Position numbers and translations under genes: made by a program
In this document: in pieces, positions 3,469 to 25,557 of the stretch
How the letters are laid out: each line of letters opens with the position of its first letter
How positions within the stretch are numbered: the first letter of the stretch is position 1
Notes under the pieces: generated by a model
Seen by the model: the letters and a program-made list of their open reading frames with translations, nothing else
Database searches by the model: none
What the model was told of the DNA's origin: nothing
DNA from: a virus
UHGV virus genome: UHGV-1992300
DNA length: 48,818 bases
Reading direction: 5' to 3' (one strand)

Positions 3469-3526
3469 AAAAAGGGCGGCAGAGCAGTCACGGAGTAAAA
3501 CTGATACCGCCAAACGTCACCAGAAA
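3469..3526 (-). ncRNA. dicF: DicF-like small RNA
   Basis: Minus-strand read is TTTCTGGTGACGTTTGGCGGTATCAGTTTTACTCCGTGACTGCTCTGCCGCCCTTTTT: GC hairpin plus U-tract terminator, ~170 nt upstream of the DicB-like ORF, matching the DicF sequence as I recall it. Confidence 0.6.
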
Positions 3527-11561: not shown

Positions 11562-12082
11562 CCTGGCCTGAAGCATTAACAACGGTAGGAATTGCGATGG
11601 CGGTGGCGCTGGTGGTGTATTCGATTTGCCACTGGGGATAAAAACGGTTTGCGGGAAAAGGAGAGTTAAGTAGAATTGCAGCGGGTGCTTGAGGCTATCT
11701 GTCTCAGGCATGAACACCAAAAGGCAGATAGAGAAAAGCCCCAGTTAACATTACGCGTCCGGCAAGACGCTTAACATTAATCTGAGGCCATATCTATGCT
11801 CTACACACGTAGGTTAGCCTCTTACGTGCCGAAAGGCAAGGAGAAGCAGGNNNNNNNNNNNNNNNNNNNNNNNNNNNCTAATCGCCCTGATCGTCATCTG
11901 TTTAACCGTCATTGTGACGGCACTGGTAACGAGGAAAGACCTCTGCGAGGTACGAATCCGAACCGGCCAGACGGAGGTCGCTGTCTTCACAGCTTACGAA
12001 CCTGAGGAGTAAGAGACCCGGCGGGGGAGTAATCTCCCGCCACCTCTGATGTGCCAGGCATCCTCAACGCACCCGCACTTAA

Positions 12083-18507: not shown

Positions 18508-18583
18508 GGCCCTTTAGCTCAGTGGTGAGAGCGAGCGACTCATAATCGCCAGGTCGCTGGTTCAAATCCAGCAAGGGCCACCA
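18508..18583 (+). tRNA. tRNA, anticodon CAT (Ile2/Met type; ileZ-like)
   Basis: Cloverleaf read by eye: acceptor GGCCCTT/AAGGGCC, D-arm TAGCTCAGTGGTGAGAGC, anticodon loop CTCATAA, T-loop GGTTCAAATCC, 3' CCA. Confidence 0.85.
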
Positions 18584-18590
18584 TCACATA

Positions 18591-18667
18591 CCGCCATTAG
18601 CTCATCAGGAAAGAGCGCCAGCCTTCGAAGCTGGTTGCGCGGGGTTCAAGTCCCCGATGGCGGTCCA
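18591..18667 (+). tRNA. tRNA-Arg, anticodon TCG
   Basis: Acceptor CCGCCAT/ATGGCGG, anticodon stem-loop CCAGC-CTTCGAA-GCTGG, T-arm CGGGGTTCAAGTCCCCG, 3' CCA. Confidence 0.8.
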
Positions 18668-18680
18668 TTATCTGCATCAT

Positions 18681-18757
18681 GCGTTGTTAGCTCAGCCGGA
18701 CAGAGCAATTGCCTTCTAAGCAATCGGTCACTGGTTCGAATCCAGTACAACGCGCCA
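18681..18757 (+). tRNA. tRNA-Arg, anticodon TCT
   Basis: Acceptor GCGTTGT/ACAACGC, anticodon stem-loop ATTGC-CTTCTAA-GCAAT, T-arm ACTGGTTCGAATCCAGT, 3' CCA. Confidence 0.85.
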
Positions 18758-19048
18758 CACTTATTTTCCCTGGCTCGCTTTTGTGGGCCTTTTTTTTAAA
18801 TGTCTCACAATTTAGGCGGTTGACTGTTGTCTGGTTTGCGGGGAGTTTGTTAAAAGAAACTGGCATGGTGAATCCCCCTGTGCGGAGGGGCAATCAGCGA
18901 GTAGGTATATGGGATAATCGCGGATTCAGGTGCTGGTACTGAATTCACCGGGAGGCACCCGGCACCATGCAATGGCACATAGCGCCACTCTCCAGCCCCT
19001 CTCCGGAGGGGCTGTTTATATTGATTTTGTCAGATGTGAGTAAACTCC

Positions 19049-19384
19049 TTATGGACTTTGTTGTTTTAGCCCATAAGGACATATTTGCAGAGTGCAACGG
19101 TTATTAAAGCATTCATTCAATACGTTATCTGTATTTGTAGGGCATTCCTGGCTGTTTTTGATTAAATTCCAGAATGTTTTATTGAATGGTACTACGTTGT
19201 AAATGGTTACAGGTAGCACTTTGTTATTGAGCATGATGCCTGTGTGAGTCAGTGTAAATATACTTTCAGGAGGTAAGAAAGCATCCGATTGATACCAGAT
19301 TATTAATTTTATTTTACTCCATATGACTGAAAAAGATATTCCGCATGATGGCTGGATAACTGTATCAATCACAATCCACTTCAT
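19049..19384 (-). CDS. hypothetical protein in AT-rich insert (stx-equivalent locus)
   Basis: 111-aa ORF with AAGGAAA RBS 5 nt before the ATG; region 19020-19630 is far more AT-rich than its flanks; four Cys in the C-terminal 30 aa; no recognisable domain. Confidence 0.45.
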
Positions 19385-19644
19385 TTAGTTTCCTTGTTTA
19401 TGCCTTGCTGGTGATGTTCTGAAAAGTATAAATGATATTTTTGATTGTAAACCATAGAGCAGAATTATTTTTCTGATGTTGTTTATTGTTTATTTAAATG
19501 CAGGGTGGTTTATATCTCGTCTTGTAGTTTATCCATGCATATCTGCTTGATGATGAGGTTTTTATTTAAGGTATGGTTTTGTGTTTTTTCTGTATTACAT
19601 GTCAGGTATTTTAAAGAATTATTTTTCAGATGGTGGAAAGAACC

Positions 19645-21606
19645 ATGGCATTTAAACACTATGATGTTGTCAGGGCGGCATCGCCGTCAGACCTTGCGAA
19701 ACGACTGACACAAAAACTGAAGGAGGGGTGGCAGCCATTTGGCAGTCCGGTGGCCATCACGCCTTATACCCTGATGCAGGCCATTGCGGCGGAAGGTGAT
19801 GTCACCACACCTGTGGTGGTGAAGCCGTCGGATGGAGAAGGCGCAGTTATCAGCACCACCAGCAACCCGGAGTATTACTTTGTTGTTGCCCTGGCCGGGC
19901 AGTCAAACGGTATGGCGTATGGTGAAGGGCTTCCGCTGCCGGAGACATATGACCGTCCGGACCCGCGTATTAAACAGCTGGCGCGTCGCAGCACTGTCAC
20001 GCCGGGTGGTGCGTCCTGTAACTACAATGACATTATTCCTGCGGACCACTGCCTGCATGATGTTCAGGATTTGAGTAAGTTTTCACACCCGAAAGCCAGC
20101 GCAGCTCAGTATGGATGCGTGGGGCAGGGATTACATATCGCGAAGAAATTGTTGCCGTTTATTCCGGCGAATGCCGGTATTCTTCTGGTTCCGTGCTGCC
20201 GTGGTGGTTCTGCATTTTTGGCGGGCGATGAAGGTACCTTCAGCGAATCCACCGGCGCAAGCGAGACCTCGGCACGCTGGGGTGTTGATAAGCCACTGTA
20301 CAAGGACCTGCTTACCCGTACTCAGGCCGCACTGAAGGCCAACCCTAAAAATATTCTGCTTGCAGTGGTCTGGATGCAGGGCGAGTTTGATTTGAAACAG
20401 GGTGCATACGCCACTCAGCCGGGGCTGTTTGATTCCATGGTGGAAAAATATCGTTCTGACCTGTCGGAATTCGGAGGTCAGTGTCTCGGGGGCTCTCCGT
20501 CATCGGTTCCCTGGATTTGTGGCGACACGACCTACTACTGGAAGCAGACTTATTCTTCGCAATACGATGCGGTGTATGGTGCATACAAGACGAAATCCGC
20601 AAAAAAAATCTTCTTTGTGCCGTTTATGACGGATGAAAACGGGCGAAATGTGGGTACCAACGAGCCGTCAGAAGATCCGGATGTTGCGGATATTGGGTAT
20701 TACGGAGCCGGTGGTCGAACGGACGCCAAAACCTGGACGACGGCCGACCGTAAAACGCATTTTGGATCATGGGCACGTCGTGGGATTATTTCCGACCGTC
20801 TGGCAACGGCGATTCTTGTGCATGCCGGGAGAAACGCTGAATTCATTACCGGAAAACAGCCTGATACGGTGAAGCCCACCGGACCTTCCGGTGAAGGTAC
20901 GGAGAGAGAGCCGGAAGCCCCGGTCAGTAACCGAACCCTGATGAGTCTGCTGGCGTCCGGCGAAGACCTGGCATCACAGGGCTGGCGCTATTATCACAAA
21001 CCGGCGAGCGGAGACAATGTTAACAAAAACATTGCTGAAGCGGTGGTCAGTGATGCGGGGGCTACGGGAGGTAAGGCCCTGCAACTGAATAAACCGGAAA
21101 ACCACATCTGGTTTCTGGAGCATGATGCAGCCGGACAGGGAGTGGAGTTACTGAAGAAGGGGGGACGTGTGAGCGTACGGTTTAAGTTGCCGGGTTCACT
21201 GGTGCCGAATCAGTTTGCCCTGGGCATTTACTGGCAGTTGTCGTCCCTGCCGGAGGGAGTGACGCTGGCAGAGGAAGGCAACGACATGCTGATGTCCTTC
21301 TTTCTGCAGACGGATGCGACGAACCTGAACGCGATGCACCACAAGAAGCCGAATGCGAAGCTGGAAACGTTCGGGGTCTTTGATAACGGATGGCACACAC
21401 TGGCTTTTGAGTTTGCCGGAAACAACAGCATTCAGGTGACGCCGGTACTGGATGAGAAACGGGGGACGCCGTTCACACTGGTGAAATCTCCGGCATCAGG
21501 GGCGGCGGACAAACTGCAACTGACAGGCATATCAAAGGCGGCGACATATACGCTGCTGATTGACAGTGTGAAGGTGGAAGTGAACAACGCGGACATCGCG
21601 GCATGA
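19645..21606 (+). CDS. NanS-p-like sialate O-acetylesterase (DUF1737 N-terminus + SASA esterase domain)
   Basis: Starts 'MAFKHYDVV'; 'ALAGQSNGMAYGEG' esterase motif; same position as the nanS-p/yjhS-like gene downstream of stx in Stx phages (from memory). Confidence 0.85.
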   Translation: MAFKHYDVVRAASPSDLAKRLTQKLKEGWQPFGSPVAITPYTLMQAIAAEGDVTTPVVVKPSDGEGAVISTTSNPEYYFVVALAGQSNGMAYGEGLPLPETYDRPDPRIKQLARRSTVTPGGASCNYNDIIPADHCLHDVQDLSKFSHPKASAAQYGCVGQGLHIAKKLLPFIPANAGILLVPCCRGGSAFLAGDEGTFSESTGASETSARWGVDKPLYKDLLTRTQAALKANPKNILLAVVWMQGEFDLKQGAYATQPGLFDSMVEKYRSDLSEFGGQCLGGSPSSVPWICGDTTYYWKQTYSSQYDAVYGAYKTKSAKKIFFVPFMTDENGRNVGTNEPSEDPDVADIGYYGAGGRTDAKTWTTADRKTHFGSWARRGIISDRLATAILVHAGRNAEFITGKQPDTVKPTGPSGEGTEREPEAPVSNRTLMSLLASGEDLASQGWRYYHKPASGDNVNKNIAEAVVSDAGATGGKALQLNKPENHIWFLEHDAAGQGVELLKKGGRVSVRFKLPGSLVPNQFALGIYWQLSSLPEGVTLAEEGNDMLMSFFLQTDATNLNAMHHKKPNAKLETFGVFDNGWHTLAFEFAGNNSIQVTPVLDEKRGTPFTLVKSPASGAADKLQLTGISKAATYTLLIDSVKVEVNNADIAA

Positions 21607-21962
21607 TAAAAAAAGCCGCCAGCGGCAGGAATGGAAGCTGGCGGAGGTAATCCCAATGGAGAATGTAAAGAAAAGATGCTTTCGACATCAATCATTTCTA
21701 AATGAAAACAGTTCTCATTGTCAACCATAACGGTAAGAAATTATGACATTTATTCATCAGGTAATGCTGTACTTCTGTATGGCAGTCTGTGTTATGTATC
21801 TTCTTTCGGGTGGGTACAGGGCAGTGCGCGATTTCTGGCGCAGGCAGATTGATAAAAGGGCCGCTGAGAGAATCAGCGCCAGTCAGTCAGCCGGAAGCAA
21901 ACCCGAAGATCCGCTCATTCCGTAGTCACTTTCTTGACAACACCTTTCAACGAGAAAATCCC

Positions 21963-22208
21963 ATGTCAGAAATCACATCCCTGGTCACTGCTGAGGCAGT
22001 GAAGGAAGTCCTGCGCTCTGAAGAAGTCCTGAGCGCACTGAAACAGAAACTCCGCCAGAACCTTGAGTCGCGTCTTGATGCAGAAGTGGATGCCATTCTG
22101 GATGAGCTGCTGGGCGTACCAGCGGTTCCGGAGCCGGAAGGTATCGCGGGTGACGGGAGTGCTTCAGATGGCGGTGAACCCACACCTGACAGCGACATGA
22201 TGATGTAA
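21963..22208 (+). CDS. hypothetical acidic small protein
   Basis: 81 aa from internal ATG '[13 protein letters not shown]'; weak RBS. Confidence 0.35.
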
Positions 22209-22284
22209 GCCTGCGCAAGGGACCATCGGTGTGTGCCGGTGGTCTTTATATTGTTGTGAGCTTCCGGATAACGGGAGACGGGGT

Positions 22285-22500
22285 ATGTACCAGATGGAAA
22301 AAATCACAACAGGTGTGTCATACACCACGTCAGCGGTGGGAACGGGCTACTGGTTCCTGCAGTTGCTGGACAGGGTTTCCCCGTCTCAGTGGGCGGCAAT
22401 AGGCGTGCTGGGGAGTCTGCTGTTTGGGCTGCTGACGTACCTGACTAACCTGTATTTCAAAATCAAAGAGGACCGGCGTAAGGCGGCGCGGGGAGAGTAA
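22285..22500 (+). CDS. S: phage-21-type pinholin S (dual-start)
   Basis: '[10 protein letters not shown]...[51 protein letters not shown]' closely matches S21 as I recall it, including the M-x-x-M dual start. Confidence 0.85.
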
Positions 22501-22504
22501 AGTG

Positions 22505-23395
22505 ATGAATAAAAAATATGAACTGGTTGTTAAGGGGATAAATAATTACGGGGATAAGGTTACTGTTACTGTGAAGCCGGAAGGTGACGGGCAAGCGTCG
22601 CTGTTGTTGCCAGATGTGGCGATTAGTCTTGACCGTACTGAAGGTGCCACGCTGGAGTTTTACGAAGCTGAGGCGAAAAAGCAGGCGAAGCAGTTTTTCA
22701 TGGATGTTGCTGCCGGGTTATGTGAATGGAACGAACCGTTGCCGGAAAAGCGCCCCGTAATTTTAGAGGCGCAGGATGTGTTGATAACCTACAAAGGAAA
22801 GCTACCGGGAAGAATTACTTGTTCTCTGAAGATGCCGCCGTCAACACTGCGGTCAGAAAAAGATGATGTTGAATCACGTATTGAAAAACTGGAGAGCTAC
22901 GTCGTTGAGCTGAATAAGAAATGGTCGATATTGGTGCCTTCTGGCGATGAAAAGCAGTTTGCTGCGTTTGACGATTATTGTCGGAAAGTGATGAGCAGAA
23001 ATCTCGCAGAGTGTTTCAGTATTCATAATGATAATTTCAGTGAGCTGGAATGGGAGTGTAACCGGCCATCCTTTGTTGTATCCGGTGATGCTGGGAAAAT
23101 AACCATCTCAGAAAATGGGAAAGTAACACCTCCATCGCACCAGCACAGTGAGGAGCTCATTGAATTTGCCATTGATTACCTGAAGAACAATAAAAAGCAG
23201 GGGCTGATGAAGCGCGTTGGCCGTTGCATGGGATATCTTCAGGTAGCCGCTGAGATTGAAGCGCTGGCCAGTGGTGCTGATAAGGATGCAATTGTGCGGG
23301 AGGCTCTTCTTCGTGATTTTAATACTCCACCCTTTAAAAAAGTGCCGGCTTACTGGCTTCATCCGGGGCTGACTTATCTTAAAGTGCGTATTTAG
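22505..23395 (+). CDS. hypothetical protein inserted between holin and endolysin
   Basis: 297-aa ORF starting 5 nt after the holin stop and ending 36 nt before the endolysin start; AT-richer than the flanking lysis genes; no TM segment or signal peptide; no domain recognised. Confidence 0.6.
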   Translation: MNKKYELVVKGINNYGDKVTVTVKPEGDGQASLLLPDVAISLDRTEGATLEFYEAEAKKQAKQFFMDVAAGLCEWNEPLPEKRPVILEAQDVLITYKGKLPGRITCSLKMPPSTLRSEKDDVESRIEKLESYVVELNKKWSILVPSGDEKQFAAFDDYCRKVMSRNLAECFSIHNDNFSELEWECNRPSFVVSGDAGKITISENGKVTPPSHQHSEELIEFAIDYLKNNKKQGLMKRVGRCMGYLQVAAEIEALASGADKDAIVREALLRDFNTPPFKKVPAYWLHPGLTYLKVRI

Positions 23396-23431
23396 TGGGC
23401 CAGGGACAGCGGCTGAATATTTAATATATCC

Positions 23432-23965
23432 ATGAACACCAAAATCAAATACGGCCTGTCGGCTGCCGTTCTGGCGCTGATTGCCGCTGGTGCGCCTGCG
23501 CCTGACATTCTCGACCAGTTTCTGGATGAAAAGGAAGGCAACCACACCACAGCATACCGTGATGGTGCAGGTATCTGGACCATCTGCCGTGGTGCCATCA
23601 TGGTGGATGGCAAACCTGTCGTTCCGGGCATGAAGTTGTCGAAGGAAAAATGCGACCAGGTTAACGCCATTGAGCGTGATAAAGCGCTGGCGTGGGTGGA
23701 GAAAAACATCAGAGTGCCGCTGACCGAACCCCAGAAAGCGGGGATCGCGTCATTCTGTCCGTACAACATTGGTCCCGGTAAGTGTTTCCCGTCGACGTTT
23801 TACAGACGAATTAATGCTGGTGATCGAAAAGGTGCCTGCGAAGCGATTCGCTGGTGGATTAAGGACGGTGGCAGAGACTGCCGTATTCGTTCAAACAACT
23901 GTTACGGTCAGGTATCCCGTCGTGACCAGGAGAGCGCGCTGGCGTGCTGGGGTATCGACAGATAA
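23432..23965 (+). CDS. R: SAR endolysin (lysozyme R21-like)
   Basis: N-terminal weakly hydrophobic SAR segment 'LSAAVLALIAAGAPAP', then lysozyme-like domain ('EGNHTTAYRDGAGIWTICRG'). Confidence 0.85.
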   Translation: MNTKIKYGLSAAVLALIAAGAPAPDILDQFLDEKEGNHTTAYRDGAGIWTICRGAIMVDGKPVVPGMKLSKEKCDQVNAIERDKALAWVEKNIRVPLTEPQKAGIASFCPYNIGPGKCFPSTFYRRINAGDRKGACEAIRWWIKDGGRDCRIRSNNCYGQVSRRDQESALACWGIDR

Positions 23966-24121
23966 GCAGAATATTTTGCTGAAAAATGAGGAATGGCCAC
24001 GCGGGCGGATAACACGAAATCCTGCGAACTGGCGAAACGTAAGTGAATAAAAGTAAAAACCCCGTTTGTTGGCACCAAGCGAGGTTTTGTGTTTCTGACC
24101 TTGAGTAAGGCAAGGGAGAAC

Positions 24122-24304
24122 ATGGCGAAGTGTAAACGAATTCTGTTGAGGTTGACTATGAAAAATGGCCTTGAACTGAAAGCGCCTGTAACTGATGACA
24201 TCAGCAGAGCACTGGCTTTTGCCATTAAGTGGGTGGCGGTCGGTGTTGCTGTGTCCCCGATGCTGTATGGGCTGGCAAAACTGGTCATTGCGTTGAAATC
24301 GTGA
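24122..24304 (+). CDS. hypothetical small membrane protein
   Basis: 60 aa with AAGGGAGAA RBS; C-terminal hydrophobic helix. Confidence 0.3.
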
Positions 24305-24319
24305 AGGGAGGATTAAGCA

Positions 24320-24450
24320 TGTCAGACAAACTCATAACGCTGGCGAAGATCCTCTGTGTAATTGTCGGCATTTCATTTTCACTAATGCTGGTTGCTCTTT
24401 TTCTTTCCATGGCCTGGATGATGTTGTCTTCGTCGGGGTTGCTGGGGTGA
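24320..24450 (+). CDS. hypothetical small membrane peptide
   Basis: 43 aa with GGGAGG RBS; single hydrophobic helix. Confidence 0.3.
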
Positions 24451-24920
24451 ACATAAACCGAATGCTTTCCGCGTTTATCGTTATTCTGCTGGTGGCCTGT
24501 GGTGCGCTGTGGATGGCAACAGACCATTACCGTGATAACGCGATTACCTACAAAGCGCAGCGCGATAACAAAGCCAGTGAACTGAAGCTGGCGAACGCAA
24601 CCATTACTGATATGCAGGTGCGCCAGCGCGATGTTGCTGCGCTCGATGCAAAATACTCGAGGGAATTAGCCGATGCGAGAGCTGAAAATGAAACTCTTCG
24701 CGCTGACGTTGCCGCTGGTCGTAAGCGCCTGCGGATCAACGCCACCTGTCCAGGCTCCGTGCGTGAAGCCCCCACCACCTCCGGCGTGGATAATGCAACC
24801 GGCCCCCAACTGGCAGACACCGTTACACGGGATTATTTCACCCTCAGAGAGCGGCTGATGACGATGCACAAGCAACTGGAAGGGGCACAGGACTATATCC
24901 GCACTCAGTGCCTGAAATAA
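24447..24920 (+). CDS. Rz: i-spanin Rz
   Basis: N-terminal TM helix then '[15 protein letters not shown]...' matching lambda Rz; start may be GTG 24447 or ATG 24462. Confidence 0.8.
24673..24858 (+). CDS. Rz1: o-spanin Rz1 (lipoprotein, embedded in Rz in the +1 frame)
   Basis: 61 aa; lipobox 'VVSAC'; proline-rich '[14 protein letters not shown]' as in lambda Rz1. Confidence 0.8.
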
Positions 24921-25230
24921 GTTTTGTTGATGCGCCGTATCGTCGCTATATTCCCTCATTAACAGAGACCGCAGCCCGACAGGGAGACTCCTCTGCGCGA
25001 GTGTGCGGGGATAATTAAAAACGATGCACACCGGGTTTTTACCGCGTTAATGATTCGCGGGTTTATCCCGGTGCGATGGTGGAAGAAACAGGAAGCTGTA
25101 TTACAGAAAGTGCTACTACTGTATCCCGATGCGATGTATGTAATGTGAGTCAGATAATGGCACAGGATGTGGTGATGTGGCAGTCTGGAACACAGGATAT
25201 ATTGTCAGAATAAGACCCGTAGGAATAAAA

Positions 25231-25557
25231 ATGAAAAGACGCCTTTTACTACTTTTTCTGTTATCTGTCCTGGCAGTGGGATGCTCACAGCAAAAAGCTG
25301 ATGAGCCCCGGCAATTAGTGACGGTGTATCCACGATATCCGGAATATGCTGCAGCAAATTATATCAAGGGGCTGGTTGAGGTTAAGTTCGATATTGGTGC
25401 TGATGGGACTGTGACACGGATCGTTTTTCTCCGCTCAGAGCCTCATAATTTGTTTCGTGATGAAGTGGTGAAGGCCATGGCGAAATGGCGATTTGAAAAG
25501 AATCGCCCCTGTCAGGGAGTGAAGAGACAATTTATCTTTACGCCGTCACGTCCCTGA
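25231..25557 (+). CDS. lipoprotein with TonB C-terminal-like domain
   Basis: Signal/lipobox 'LLLLFLLSVLAVGC'; 'YPEYAAANYIKGLVEVKFDIGADGTVTRIVFLRSEPHNLFRDEVVKAMAKWRFE' aligns by eye with the E. coli TonB C-terminal domain. Confidence 0.6.
   Translation: MKRRLLLLFLLSVLAVGCSQQKADEPRQLVTVYPRYPEYAAANYIKGLVEVKFDIGADGTVTRIVFLRSEPHNLFRDEVVKAMAKWRFEKNRPCQGVKRQFIFTPSRP

Follow-up and report, generated by a model that had tools for sequence, protein, structure and literature searches.

In the lysis cassette of the viral genome UHGV-1992300, an additional gene separates the pinholin gene S from R, the gene for the signal-arrest-release (SAR) endolysin. The sequence, 48,818 nt long and referred to here in its full length as the window, contains between S and R a reading frame that runs on the + strand without interruption from 22502 to 23395 in the list of open reading frames (ORFs). 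The encoded protein belongs to the YdfR family: aa 2-101 match Pfam DUF1327 (PF07041) with 136.9 bits against a gathering cut-off of 25 (E 2.7e-40), and the alignment with the profile of PHROG 1085 runs from end to end (aa 2-297 against profile positions 1-296 of 296, E 1.5e-189). Precisely this 296-aa sequence is encoded on 966 public contigs, where it carries the names "YdfR family protein", "DUF1327 domain-containing protein" or "Phage protein".

We are nearly certain that the gene is an intact accessory late gene, which uses the translationally coupled start after the pinholin gene, and that its product is a full-length protein of the YdfR/DUF1327 prophage family. The family itself is already known; it is catalogued, often occupies the holin-endolysin slot of lambdoid prophages of Escherichia coli, and the identical protein is in public databases. 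What is new here is a two-domain architecture that includes a previously unrecognised conserved C-terminal domain outside Pfam. The original prediction, made from the sequence of the window alone, had seen no recognisable domain in the product and had considered a gene between S and R to be unusual. The matches to DUF1327/YdfR and PHROG 1085 correct the first point. The second is contradicted by the gene order essQ-ydfR-rrrQ in the Qin cryptic prophage of E. coli K-12 and by about 100 deposited phage genomes with a DUF1327 gene, which lies between S and R at every locus examined (including BP-4795, Evi, PhiR42_1 and 2H10).

The YdfR-family gene and its immediate surroundings

Two start codons are available to the YdfR-family gene, GTG at 22502 and ATG at 22505. 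A Shine-Dalgarno-like sequence within the 3' end of S precedes the ATG by 7 nt and the GTG by 4 nt, and the ATG is also the start chosen by the Prokaryotic Genome Annotation Pipeline (PGAP) in a genome that is 100% identical across the region. Because of this spacing and this choice the ATG is the likely start, which gives a product of 296 aa rather than the 297 aa first proposed. The S stop codon ends at 22500, so that 4 nt separate it from the ATG and 1 nt from the GTG, where 5 nt had been given; the distance of 36 nt from the stop of the gene to the start of R was measured as predicted. The remaining features of the cassette are collected in Table 1.

Table 1. Coordinates of the YdfR-family gene, its modules and the surrounding lysis genes in the window.
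Feature	Position	Strand	Basis
S, P21-type class II holin (pinholin), 71 aa, dual start MYQM	22285..22500	+	Pfam PF04971 "Bacteriophage P21 holin S", E 1.5e-32
Shine-Dalgarno GGGGAGAG in the 3' end of S, used by whichever gene comes after S	22490..22497	+	Junction alignment
YdfR-family gene, long form, 296 aa plus stop	22505..23395	+	ORF; PHROG 1085 over the full length
Module A, aa 1-77, DUF1327, three strands and a long helix	22505..22735	+	PF07041, E 2.7e-40; AlphaFold2 per-residue confidence (pLDDT) 74-93
Module B, aa 78-120, predicted disordered linker PEKRPVILEAQDVLITYKGKLPGRIT...	22736..22864	+	pLDDT <50 over aa 73-120
Modules C-D, aa 121-180, amphipathic helices ESRIEKLESYVVELNKK...	22865..23044	+	Helices 118-143 and 149-170, low confidence (AlphaFold2)
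Module E, aa 181-296, conserved C-terminal domain, small beta-meander and 3-4 helices	23045..23392	+	AlphaFold2 domain model
A/T-rich 36-nt spacer ahead of R, without Shine-Dalgarno	23396..23431	+	Sequence; fold z = 0.52
R, SAR-type endolysin, 177 aa	23432..23965	+	Pfam Phage_lysozyme, E 2.4e-24; N-terminal GLSAAVLALIAAGAPAP
Rz i-spanin	24447..24920	+	Pfam Phage_lysis, E 2e-47
Rz1 ORF embedded in Rz	24673..24858	+	ORF list

The identity of both neighbours was borne out by the Pfam matches, the dual start of S and the N-terminus of R, a hydrophobic, Gly/Ala-rich segment as expected of a SAR endolysin. The gene between them is, as noticed at the outset, a real ORF that is richer in A and T than its surroundings: its GC content is 46.1% (46.8% at third codon positions) against 55.1% in S, 54.3% in R and 54.9% in Rz, where third positions reach 59-71%. 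The product also looks soluble, as had been predicted. The highest Kyte-Doolittle mean over 19 residues is 0.75, the grand average of hydropathy is -0.39, and hydropathy analysis revealed neither a transmembrane segment nor a signal peptide, so that the protein would stay in the cytoplasm, where RNase E is located.

Candidate assignments within the lysis machinery were rejected. A holin or antiholin is not compatible with the lack of a transmembrane domain and of any holin match in Pfam. An endolysin or spanin was dismissed since no Pfam, NCBIfam or PDB match to muralytic or Rz/Rz1 features was obtained, and R and Rz/Rz1 are encoded separately. The NCBIfam search of the protein returned noise only, and PADLOC gave no defence match, its sole match being PbeC (E 0.049, 9.9 bits) over the helical segment. 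One outcome foreseen by the original prediction, a known accessory lysis protein, was thus not encountered, since no function has been assigned to the family.

Two domains, their variants and their conservation

Alignments of the E. coli variants and of more distant homologues delimit the modules listed in Table 1. Module A corresponds to the DUF1327 domain. The linker, module B, is kept by the E. coli variants, but the Salmonella homologues have another sequence in its place. Modules C-D, which possibly form a short coiled coil, are the most variable and indel-prone part of the protein, with insertions or replacements in the 329-, 268- and 287-aa variants. Invariant or nearly invariant residues are concentrated in module E (H214, G239-R240 in GRxMGxLQVAAEIE, DF(D/N)xPPFK, W284 and PGxxYLKxR). 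AlphaFold2, run on an alignment of 48 sequences, gave a confident N-domain, and the C-terminal domain modelled alone reached a pLDDT of 85.6 and a predicted template-modelling score (pTM) of 0.78.

Neither domain has a detectable relative among solved structures or among predicted structures of viral proteins. Module E yielded no Pfam, PDB or BFVD match, the comparison of the sequence profile with PDB chains returned nothing below E 0.3, no structural similarity to a solved RNase E regulator was found, and a Pfam scan of the 48 aligned homologues recovered DUF1327 only. The search for remote homology and structure that had been suggested earlier thus succeeded in placing the protein in a family, by way of DUF1327 and PHROG 1085, and produced no fold match for either domain. 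An origin of the two domains by internal duplication was rejected (hhalign probability 0.1% for the N- against the C-domain). As an observation in its own right, the motif DF(D/N)xPPFK at aa 272-279 (nt 23318-23341) bears a superficial likeness to the acidic C-terminal tip of the single-stranded DNA-binding protein SSB, DFDDDIPF; since the motif is internal in the window protein, the likeness is probably a coincidence.

The two domains occur in several arrangements within the same slot of E. coli prophages. Fused forms have 296, 329, 287, 268, 333 or 328 aa, forms with the N-terminal side only (modules A, A-B or A-D) have 103, 114, 183 or 211 aa, and stand-alone C-D-E proteins of 185 aa are found directly between S and R. 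A reversed order also exists, in which S is followed by a 213-aa C-D-E protein, a 75-aa DUF1327 ORF and R (loci L007-L010, 4001-5313), and split or partly deleted versions occur as well. Among 83 loci drawn from IMG/VR and representative genomes, the 296-aa and the 185-aa form were each found 29 times and the 329-aa form 9 times, and about 14 loci were split or deleted. Fused, encoded by separate adjacent ORFs in reverse, or alone, the domains always take the same slot, and from these arrangements they appear to be functionally linked.

The Stx2-converting phage 86 (gp05, YP_794052, 268 aa) and the Stx2a phage Stx2_95 (BCI50300, 329 aa) carry homologues of the same architecture in the same slot, at 78-88% identity to the window protein overall and 83-94% in module E. 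Differences fall in the middle modules, in which Stx2_95 has a 33-aa insertion and phage 86 a replacement; phage 86 additionally contains a segment of about 450 nt ahead of R. K-12 YdfR (b1555, P76160), encoded in the same place in Qin with the same 4-nt spacing after S, shares 46% identity with the N-terminal domain of the window protein over 74 aa (aa 1-74). Its 103 aa comprise module A and a short unrelated tail, whereas all that follows in the window protein, from the linker through the helices to the conserved C-terminal domain, is missing. Another 296-aa E. coli variant, P0022, is 98% identical to the window protein from residue 121 on and 54% identical in the N-domain, a split that points to recombination at the edge of the N-domain or close to it; its N-domain is 81% identical to K-12 YdfR. 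Because long forms with a K-12-like N-domain exist, and because full-length two-domain homologues are found in both E. coli and Salmonella, K-12 YdfR, the namesake of the family, looks like a truncated derivative of the long form. The family was in effect named after a probable truncated remnant, and the conserved C-terminal domain was consequently overlooked.

The C-terminal part belongs to a narrow family, since an exhaustive phmmer search with aa 102-297 against 1.84 billion cluster representatives found only 29 clusters. A profile search resolved two branches, one in E. coli/Shigella and one consisting of prophage "hypothetical proteins" of 245-338 aa in Salmonella enterica; a scan of species-representative genomes located the C-domain in Escherichia and Shigella representatives and in no further taxa. 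The Salmonella proteins (for example P0161 with 305 aa and P0181 with 245 aa) have an N-domain that resembles DUF1327, followed by a helical segment and by the C-domain, in which GRxMGLLQVAAEIE, DFDNPPFK and PGxxYLK are recognisable; module E is 35-46% identical to that of the window and the whole protein 25-30%. Some have C-terminal extensions, and most are not recognised by Pfam DUF1327. Their genes again adjoin a P21-type holin-lysozyme pair, but they lie upstream of S and downstream of Q rather than between S and R, so that the linkage to the P21-type cassette is conserved across genera and the exact position is not. At the Salmonella loci L014-L018 (3100-6600) the homologue stands beside ParE/helix-turn-helix or HicAB toxin-antitoxin genes, and L014-L016 contain in addition an unannotated 177-aa ORF. 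Reverse-strand ORFs of 86-104 aa that come after the gene in phage 86, L007 and Salmonella L014 were considered as partner genes and rejected, being mutually non-homologous and without a Pfam match.

Selection was estimated from ratios of nonsynonymous to synonymous substitutions (dN/dS) by the Nei-Gojobori method. Module E gave values of 0.17-0.22 at dS 0.07-0.43, and the N-domain gave 0.43-0.69, apart from one pair that reached 1.4 but had few substitutions. By this measure the C-domain is clearly constrained, while the N-domain would be less constrained or possibly diversifying. Since the frame is moreover intact in hundreds of genomes, the gene is more than a chance ORF.

This conservation bears directly on the public annotation of the locus. 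In NZ_CP091756 (L003 20275-21201), which is identical to the window, PGAP annotates the first 336 nt only, as a pseudogene described as "YdfR family protein; incomplete; missing C-terminus", and leaves the remaining 590 nt (the side of window positions 22841-23395) without annotation. In a spread sample of 40 RefSeq genomes with module E, most records have no feature at all over this module. Taken together with the roughly 14 of 83 loci that are split or deleted, these records could suggest that the gene is a non-functional remnant, a reading that we regard as very improbable. The 296-codon frame is intact in the window and in hundreds of genomes, module E has kept its low dN/dS at dS values up to 0.43, the architecture has persisted in Salmonella at 25-30% overall identity, and the C-domain has a confident AlphaFold2 model; PGAP itself arrived at its call through a reference whose C-terminus is different. 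The intact frame, the signature of selection and the Salmonella homologues all speak against the pseudogene call, and the pattern in RefSeq looks like a systematic mis-annotation of an intact gene, which the pipeline often marks as a pseudogene while two-thirds of it are left unannotated. The conserved pseudogene fragment that the original prediction had named as its other possible refutation is likewise not what the locus contains.

The S-R junction and its occupancy

At the junction, the gene after S begins 3-4 nt past the S stop in the window, in 933W (where this gene is R), in BP-4795, in Stx2_95 and at the loci L007 and L011, and the same spacing is seen in Evi, PhiR42_1 and 2H10. In the window this S-coupled start is taken by the YdfR-family gene, and R is displaced to 36 nt downstream of its stop. 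The R leader (23396-23434) reads AATATTTAATATATCC-ATG and has no Shine-Dalgarno sequence, whereas R of 933W uses the S-coupled site. R also begins differently, with MNTKIK in the window and MSRKLR in 933W over the first six residues, which points to a recombination junction within the 5' end of R. The loss of the coupled site and the change of leader may have altered the ratio of R to S expression. The idea of a structured regulatory RNA at the start of R was discarded, as the predicted fold is ordinary (z = 0.52), and Rfam has no family within the S-R slot.

In a consensus scan of 21600-25200 the + strand showed no promoter-like site, and the only hairpins resembling terminators were weak. 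The YdfR-family gene is thus most naturally read as co-transcribed late with the lysis genes, in agreement with the original prediction, and its expression should be late and coupled to S through the Shine-Dalgarno sequence inside S.

The long form is common in bacterial genomes. A megablast search with the S to R segment found matches in 4334 of 5426 complete E. coli genomes, 560 of which cover at least 80% of the query and thus represent the long form; DNA of the C-terminal module is present in 787 of the 5426, with an identity of at least 99% in 444 of them. Roughly one complete E. coli genome in seven carries the gene, as do some Shiga-toxin phages, in which toxin release would coincide with its expression. 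In the majority of deposited phage genomes that match the S to R segment (n = 368), among them 933W, VT2-Sakai, 24B and most Stx2a phages, S and R fit into about 800 bp and no other gene separates them; the C-terminal module is found in only five phage records, corresponding to three distinct phages. Two comparative studies of Stx phages describe the cassette and do not discuss the YdfR-family gene.

The empty slot of 933W is particularly informative. Its R starts 4 nt past the S stop, its S protein is 100% identical to that of the window, and its R is identical at 167 of 177 residues (94%). 933W is a lysis-competent phage. The S/R pair therefore does not need the YdfR-family gene, which on the strength of this comparison is accessory and dispensable for lysis. 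The comparison of S-R junctions, as proposed with the original prediction, hence turned up cassettes with and without the insert, and it upholds the view of an extra, non-lysis gene inside a P21-type cassette whose minimal version, that of 933W, works without it.

Other parts of the prophage also deserve mention. Two small conserved + strand ORFs directly upstream of S, DUF1378 (21743-21925) and DUF826 (21963-22208), accompany the cassette in many related loci. Between R and Rz lie two small overlapping + strand ORFs, 24089-24304 and 24229-24450, which belong to PHROG 1115 and PHROG 4906 and have no Pfam match; the second encodes a hydrophobic stretch, and other phages have ant, KilA-N or methyltransferase genes at this position. 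Downstream of Rz, a 126-aa ORF (25177-25557, +) contains a TonB_C domain (E 1.1e-12), and its N-terminus, LLFLLSVLAVGCSQ, resembles that of a lipoprotein; in lambda-like phages this place is often taken by bor. Downstream of Q, three tRNA genes (18508-18754) are followed by the small RNA (sRNA) STnc100 (18834-19023) and by an island of 30-37% GC with a reverse-strand ORF of 111 aa (19049-19384), which has no Pfam match and is named "anti-adapter protein IraM" by PGAP in a related genome. The region 18508-19630 is the position at which Stx phages carry stx, and nanS-p is still present at 19630-21606; with the stx position occupied otherwise and nanS-p kept, the prophage looks like a stx-less relative of Stx phages. 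In the early region, Rfam identifies the DicF sRNA (3474-3525, -) and a sok antitoxin RNA of a hok/sok-type module (11683-11850, +).

Candidate roles and comparison with known systems

Among the papers that match "DUF1327" or treat E. coli ydfR, none assigns a function, and the experimental data come from two studies of the K-12 gene. A bacterial two-hybrid screen recovered YdfR aa 1-72, which gave signals with RNase E 1-597, and Rne 1-598 as well as DNase-resistant nucleic acid co-purified with Strep-YdfR; the co-purification was performed without nuclease treatment, and overexpression of K-12 ydfR altered few transcripts (Gopel et al., 2026, PMC13232886). Module A as delimited here is the exact counterpart of the 1-72 fragment. 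In addition, a K-12 ydfR deletion mutant was among the hits of a screen for envelope leakiness based on chlorophenol red-beta-D-galactopyranoside (CPRG; PMC3879167, supplements). Polarity of the resistance cassette on rrrQ, the endolysin gene downstream of ydfR, may account for this phenotype.

Our best guess, which we offer tentatively, is that the YdfR-family protein acts late, in the cytoplasm, on RNase E or RNA. A soluble two-domain protein would be made late in infection alongside the lysis proteins, without itself being part of the lysis machinery. In line with the report on K-12 YdfR, the DUF1327 N-domain of this protein would bind the catalytic half of host RNase E, RNA or both. Dimerisation may be brought about by the short helical segment, and a second partner or activity would come with the conserved C-terminal domain. 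The net effect could be an altered RNA decay late in infection, for example through protection of the long late transcript or a change in host mRNA turnover. Engagement of RNase E by an N-domain that is 46% identical to that of K-12 is inferred from the homologue, as are the steps downstream of it. The chimeric P0022 lends support, as it joins a K-12-like N-domain (81%) to a window-like C-terminal two-thirds (98%). We consider it rather doubtful that the protein represents a novel type of late phage factor within pinholin/SAR-endolysin cassettes, a two-domain cytoplasmic adaptor in which DUF1327 would capture RNase E or RNA and the C-domain would deliver an effector or timing function, thereby coupling RNA decay or a different host process to the lysis programme.

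Several points weigh against a role at RNase E. Binding has been reported for the 103-aa K-12 protein only, the contact may be bridged by RNA, and few transcripts responded to overexpression (PMC13232886). The N-domain of the window, at 46% identity to K-12 and with a dN/dS of 0.43-0.69 (1.4 in one pair), may present a different binding surface. In the phages that encode the 185-aa C-terminal form alone (29 of 83 loci), the C-domain must act without DUF1327, and nothing connects this domain to RNase E or, by sequence or fold, to any solved protein. Finally, a role in lysis would agree equally well with the strict linkage to P21-type holins seen in two genera.

Such a role is the main rival, although we consider it unlikely. 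The protein could regulate lysis timing and tune membrane depolarisation through binding to the pinholin, at its cytoplasmic tail, or to the SAR endolysin in its membrane-tethered form, or the gene could act in cis, lowering or delaying R translation by taking the S-coupled start. The position of the gene 3-4 nt past the S stop at every E. coli locus examined speaks for this, as does the Qin-type ydfR, whose 4-nt overlap with the R start makes S, ydfR and R one coupled chain; R of the window, deprived of the coupled site and without a Shine-Dalgarno sequence, would fit the effect in cis, and the Salmonella homologue is again found beside a P21-type holin. This homologue, however, lies upstream of S and is uncoupled from it. 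The envelope leakiness of the K-12 deletion mutant would also agree with a lysis function, but it may stem from polarity on rrrQ. The comparison with 933W speaks against such a function, since an identical S and a 94% identical R without the gene mean that neither S nor R co-varies with the insert, and the protein has no similarity to a known lysis regulator or lysis protein family.

About as likely as control of lysis timing is a generic moron, that is, a horizontally acquired passenger of the late operon that could provide counter-defence, late exclusion of competing phages or a fitness trait of the lysogen. Of the features of a moron, presence/absence polymorphism and deviant base composition are both found here: the polymorphism is clean with conserved flanks, and GC lies 8-9 points below the flanking genes. 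The slot is plastic as well, with mosaic alleles, deletions, splits and reordered modules, and other junctions of the cassette hold variable cargo, namely ant, KilA-N or methyltransferase genes between R and Rz, and toxin-antitoxin genes, nanS-p or stx between Q and S. The raised dN/dS of the N-domain would suit an arms race. On the other hand, the consensus scan detected no promoter or terminator of its own, so that no expression is expected in the lysogen, which argues against a classical prophage defence. PADLOC gave no match, and among the loci examined the gene was never found away from a P21-type holin.

The gene is widely carried within one of the best-studied phage cassettes, and its natural variants form a series (empty, N only, C only, fused and reversed) with near-identical S and R. 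This series amounts to a ready-made experiment, in which lysis timing, burst size and the stability of late RNA can be compared.

Known systems offer analogies for both lysis timing and RNase E. P1 LydB, which acts against the holin LydA, and T4 RIII, which acts with the holin T, are likewise soluble proteins encoded in or next to a holin-endolysin cassette; they differ in that a window-type S/R pair works without the YdfR-family gene in 933W. For contact with RNase E, a possible and purely functional analogy may be drawn to the phage modulators T4 Srd, phiKZ Dip and T7 gp0.7, in each of which a phage protein contacts RNase E to reshape RNA decay. The window protein has no sequence or fold similarity in the PDB, and these modulators are early or middle products, whereas the YdfR-family gene is late. 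If the link to RNase E holds true for the phage forms, we speculate that the family could represent a temperate-phage counterpart of the RNase E modulators of virulent phages.

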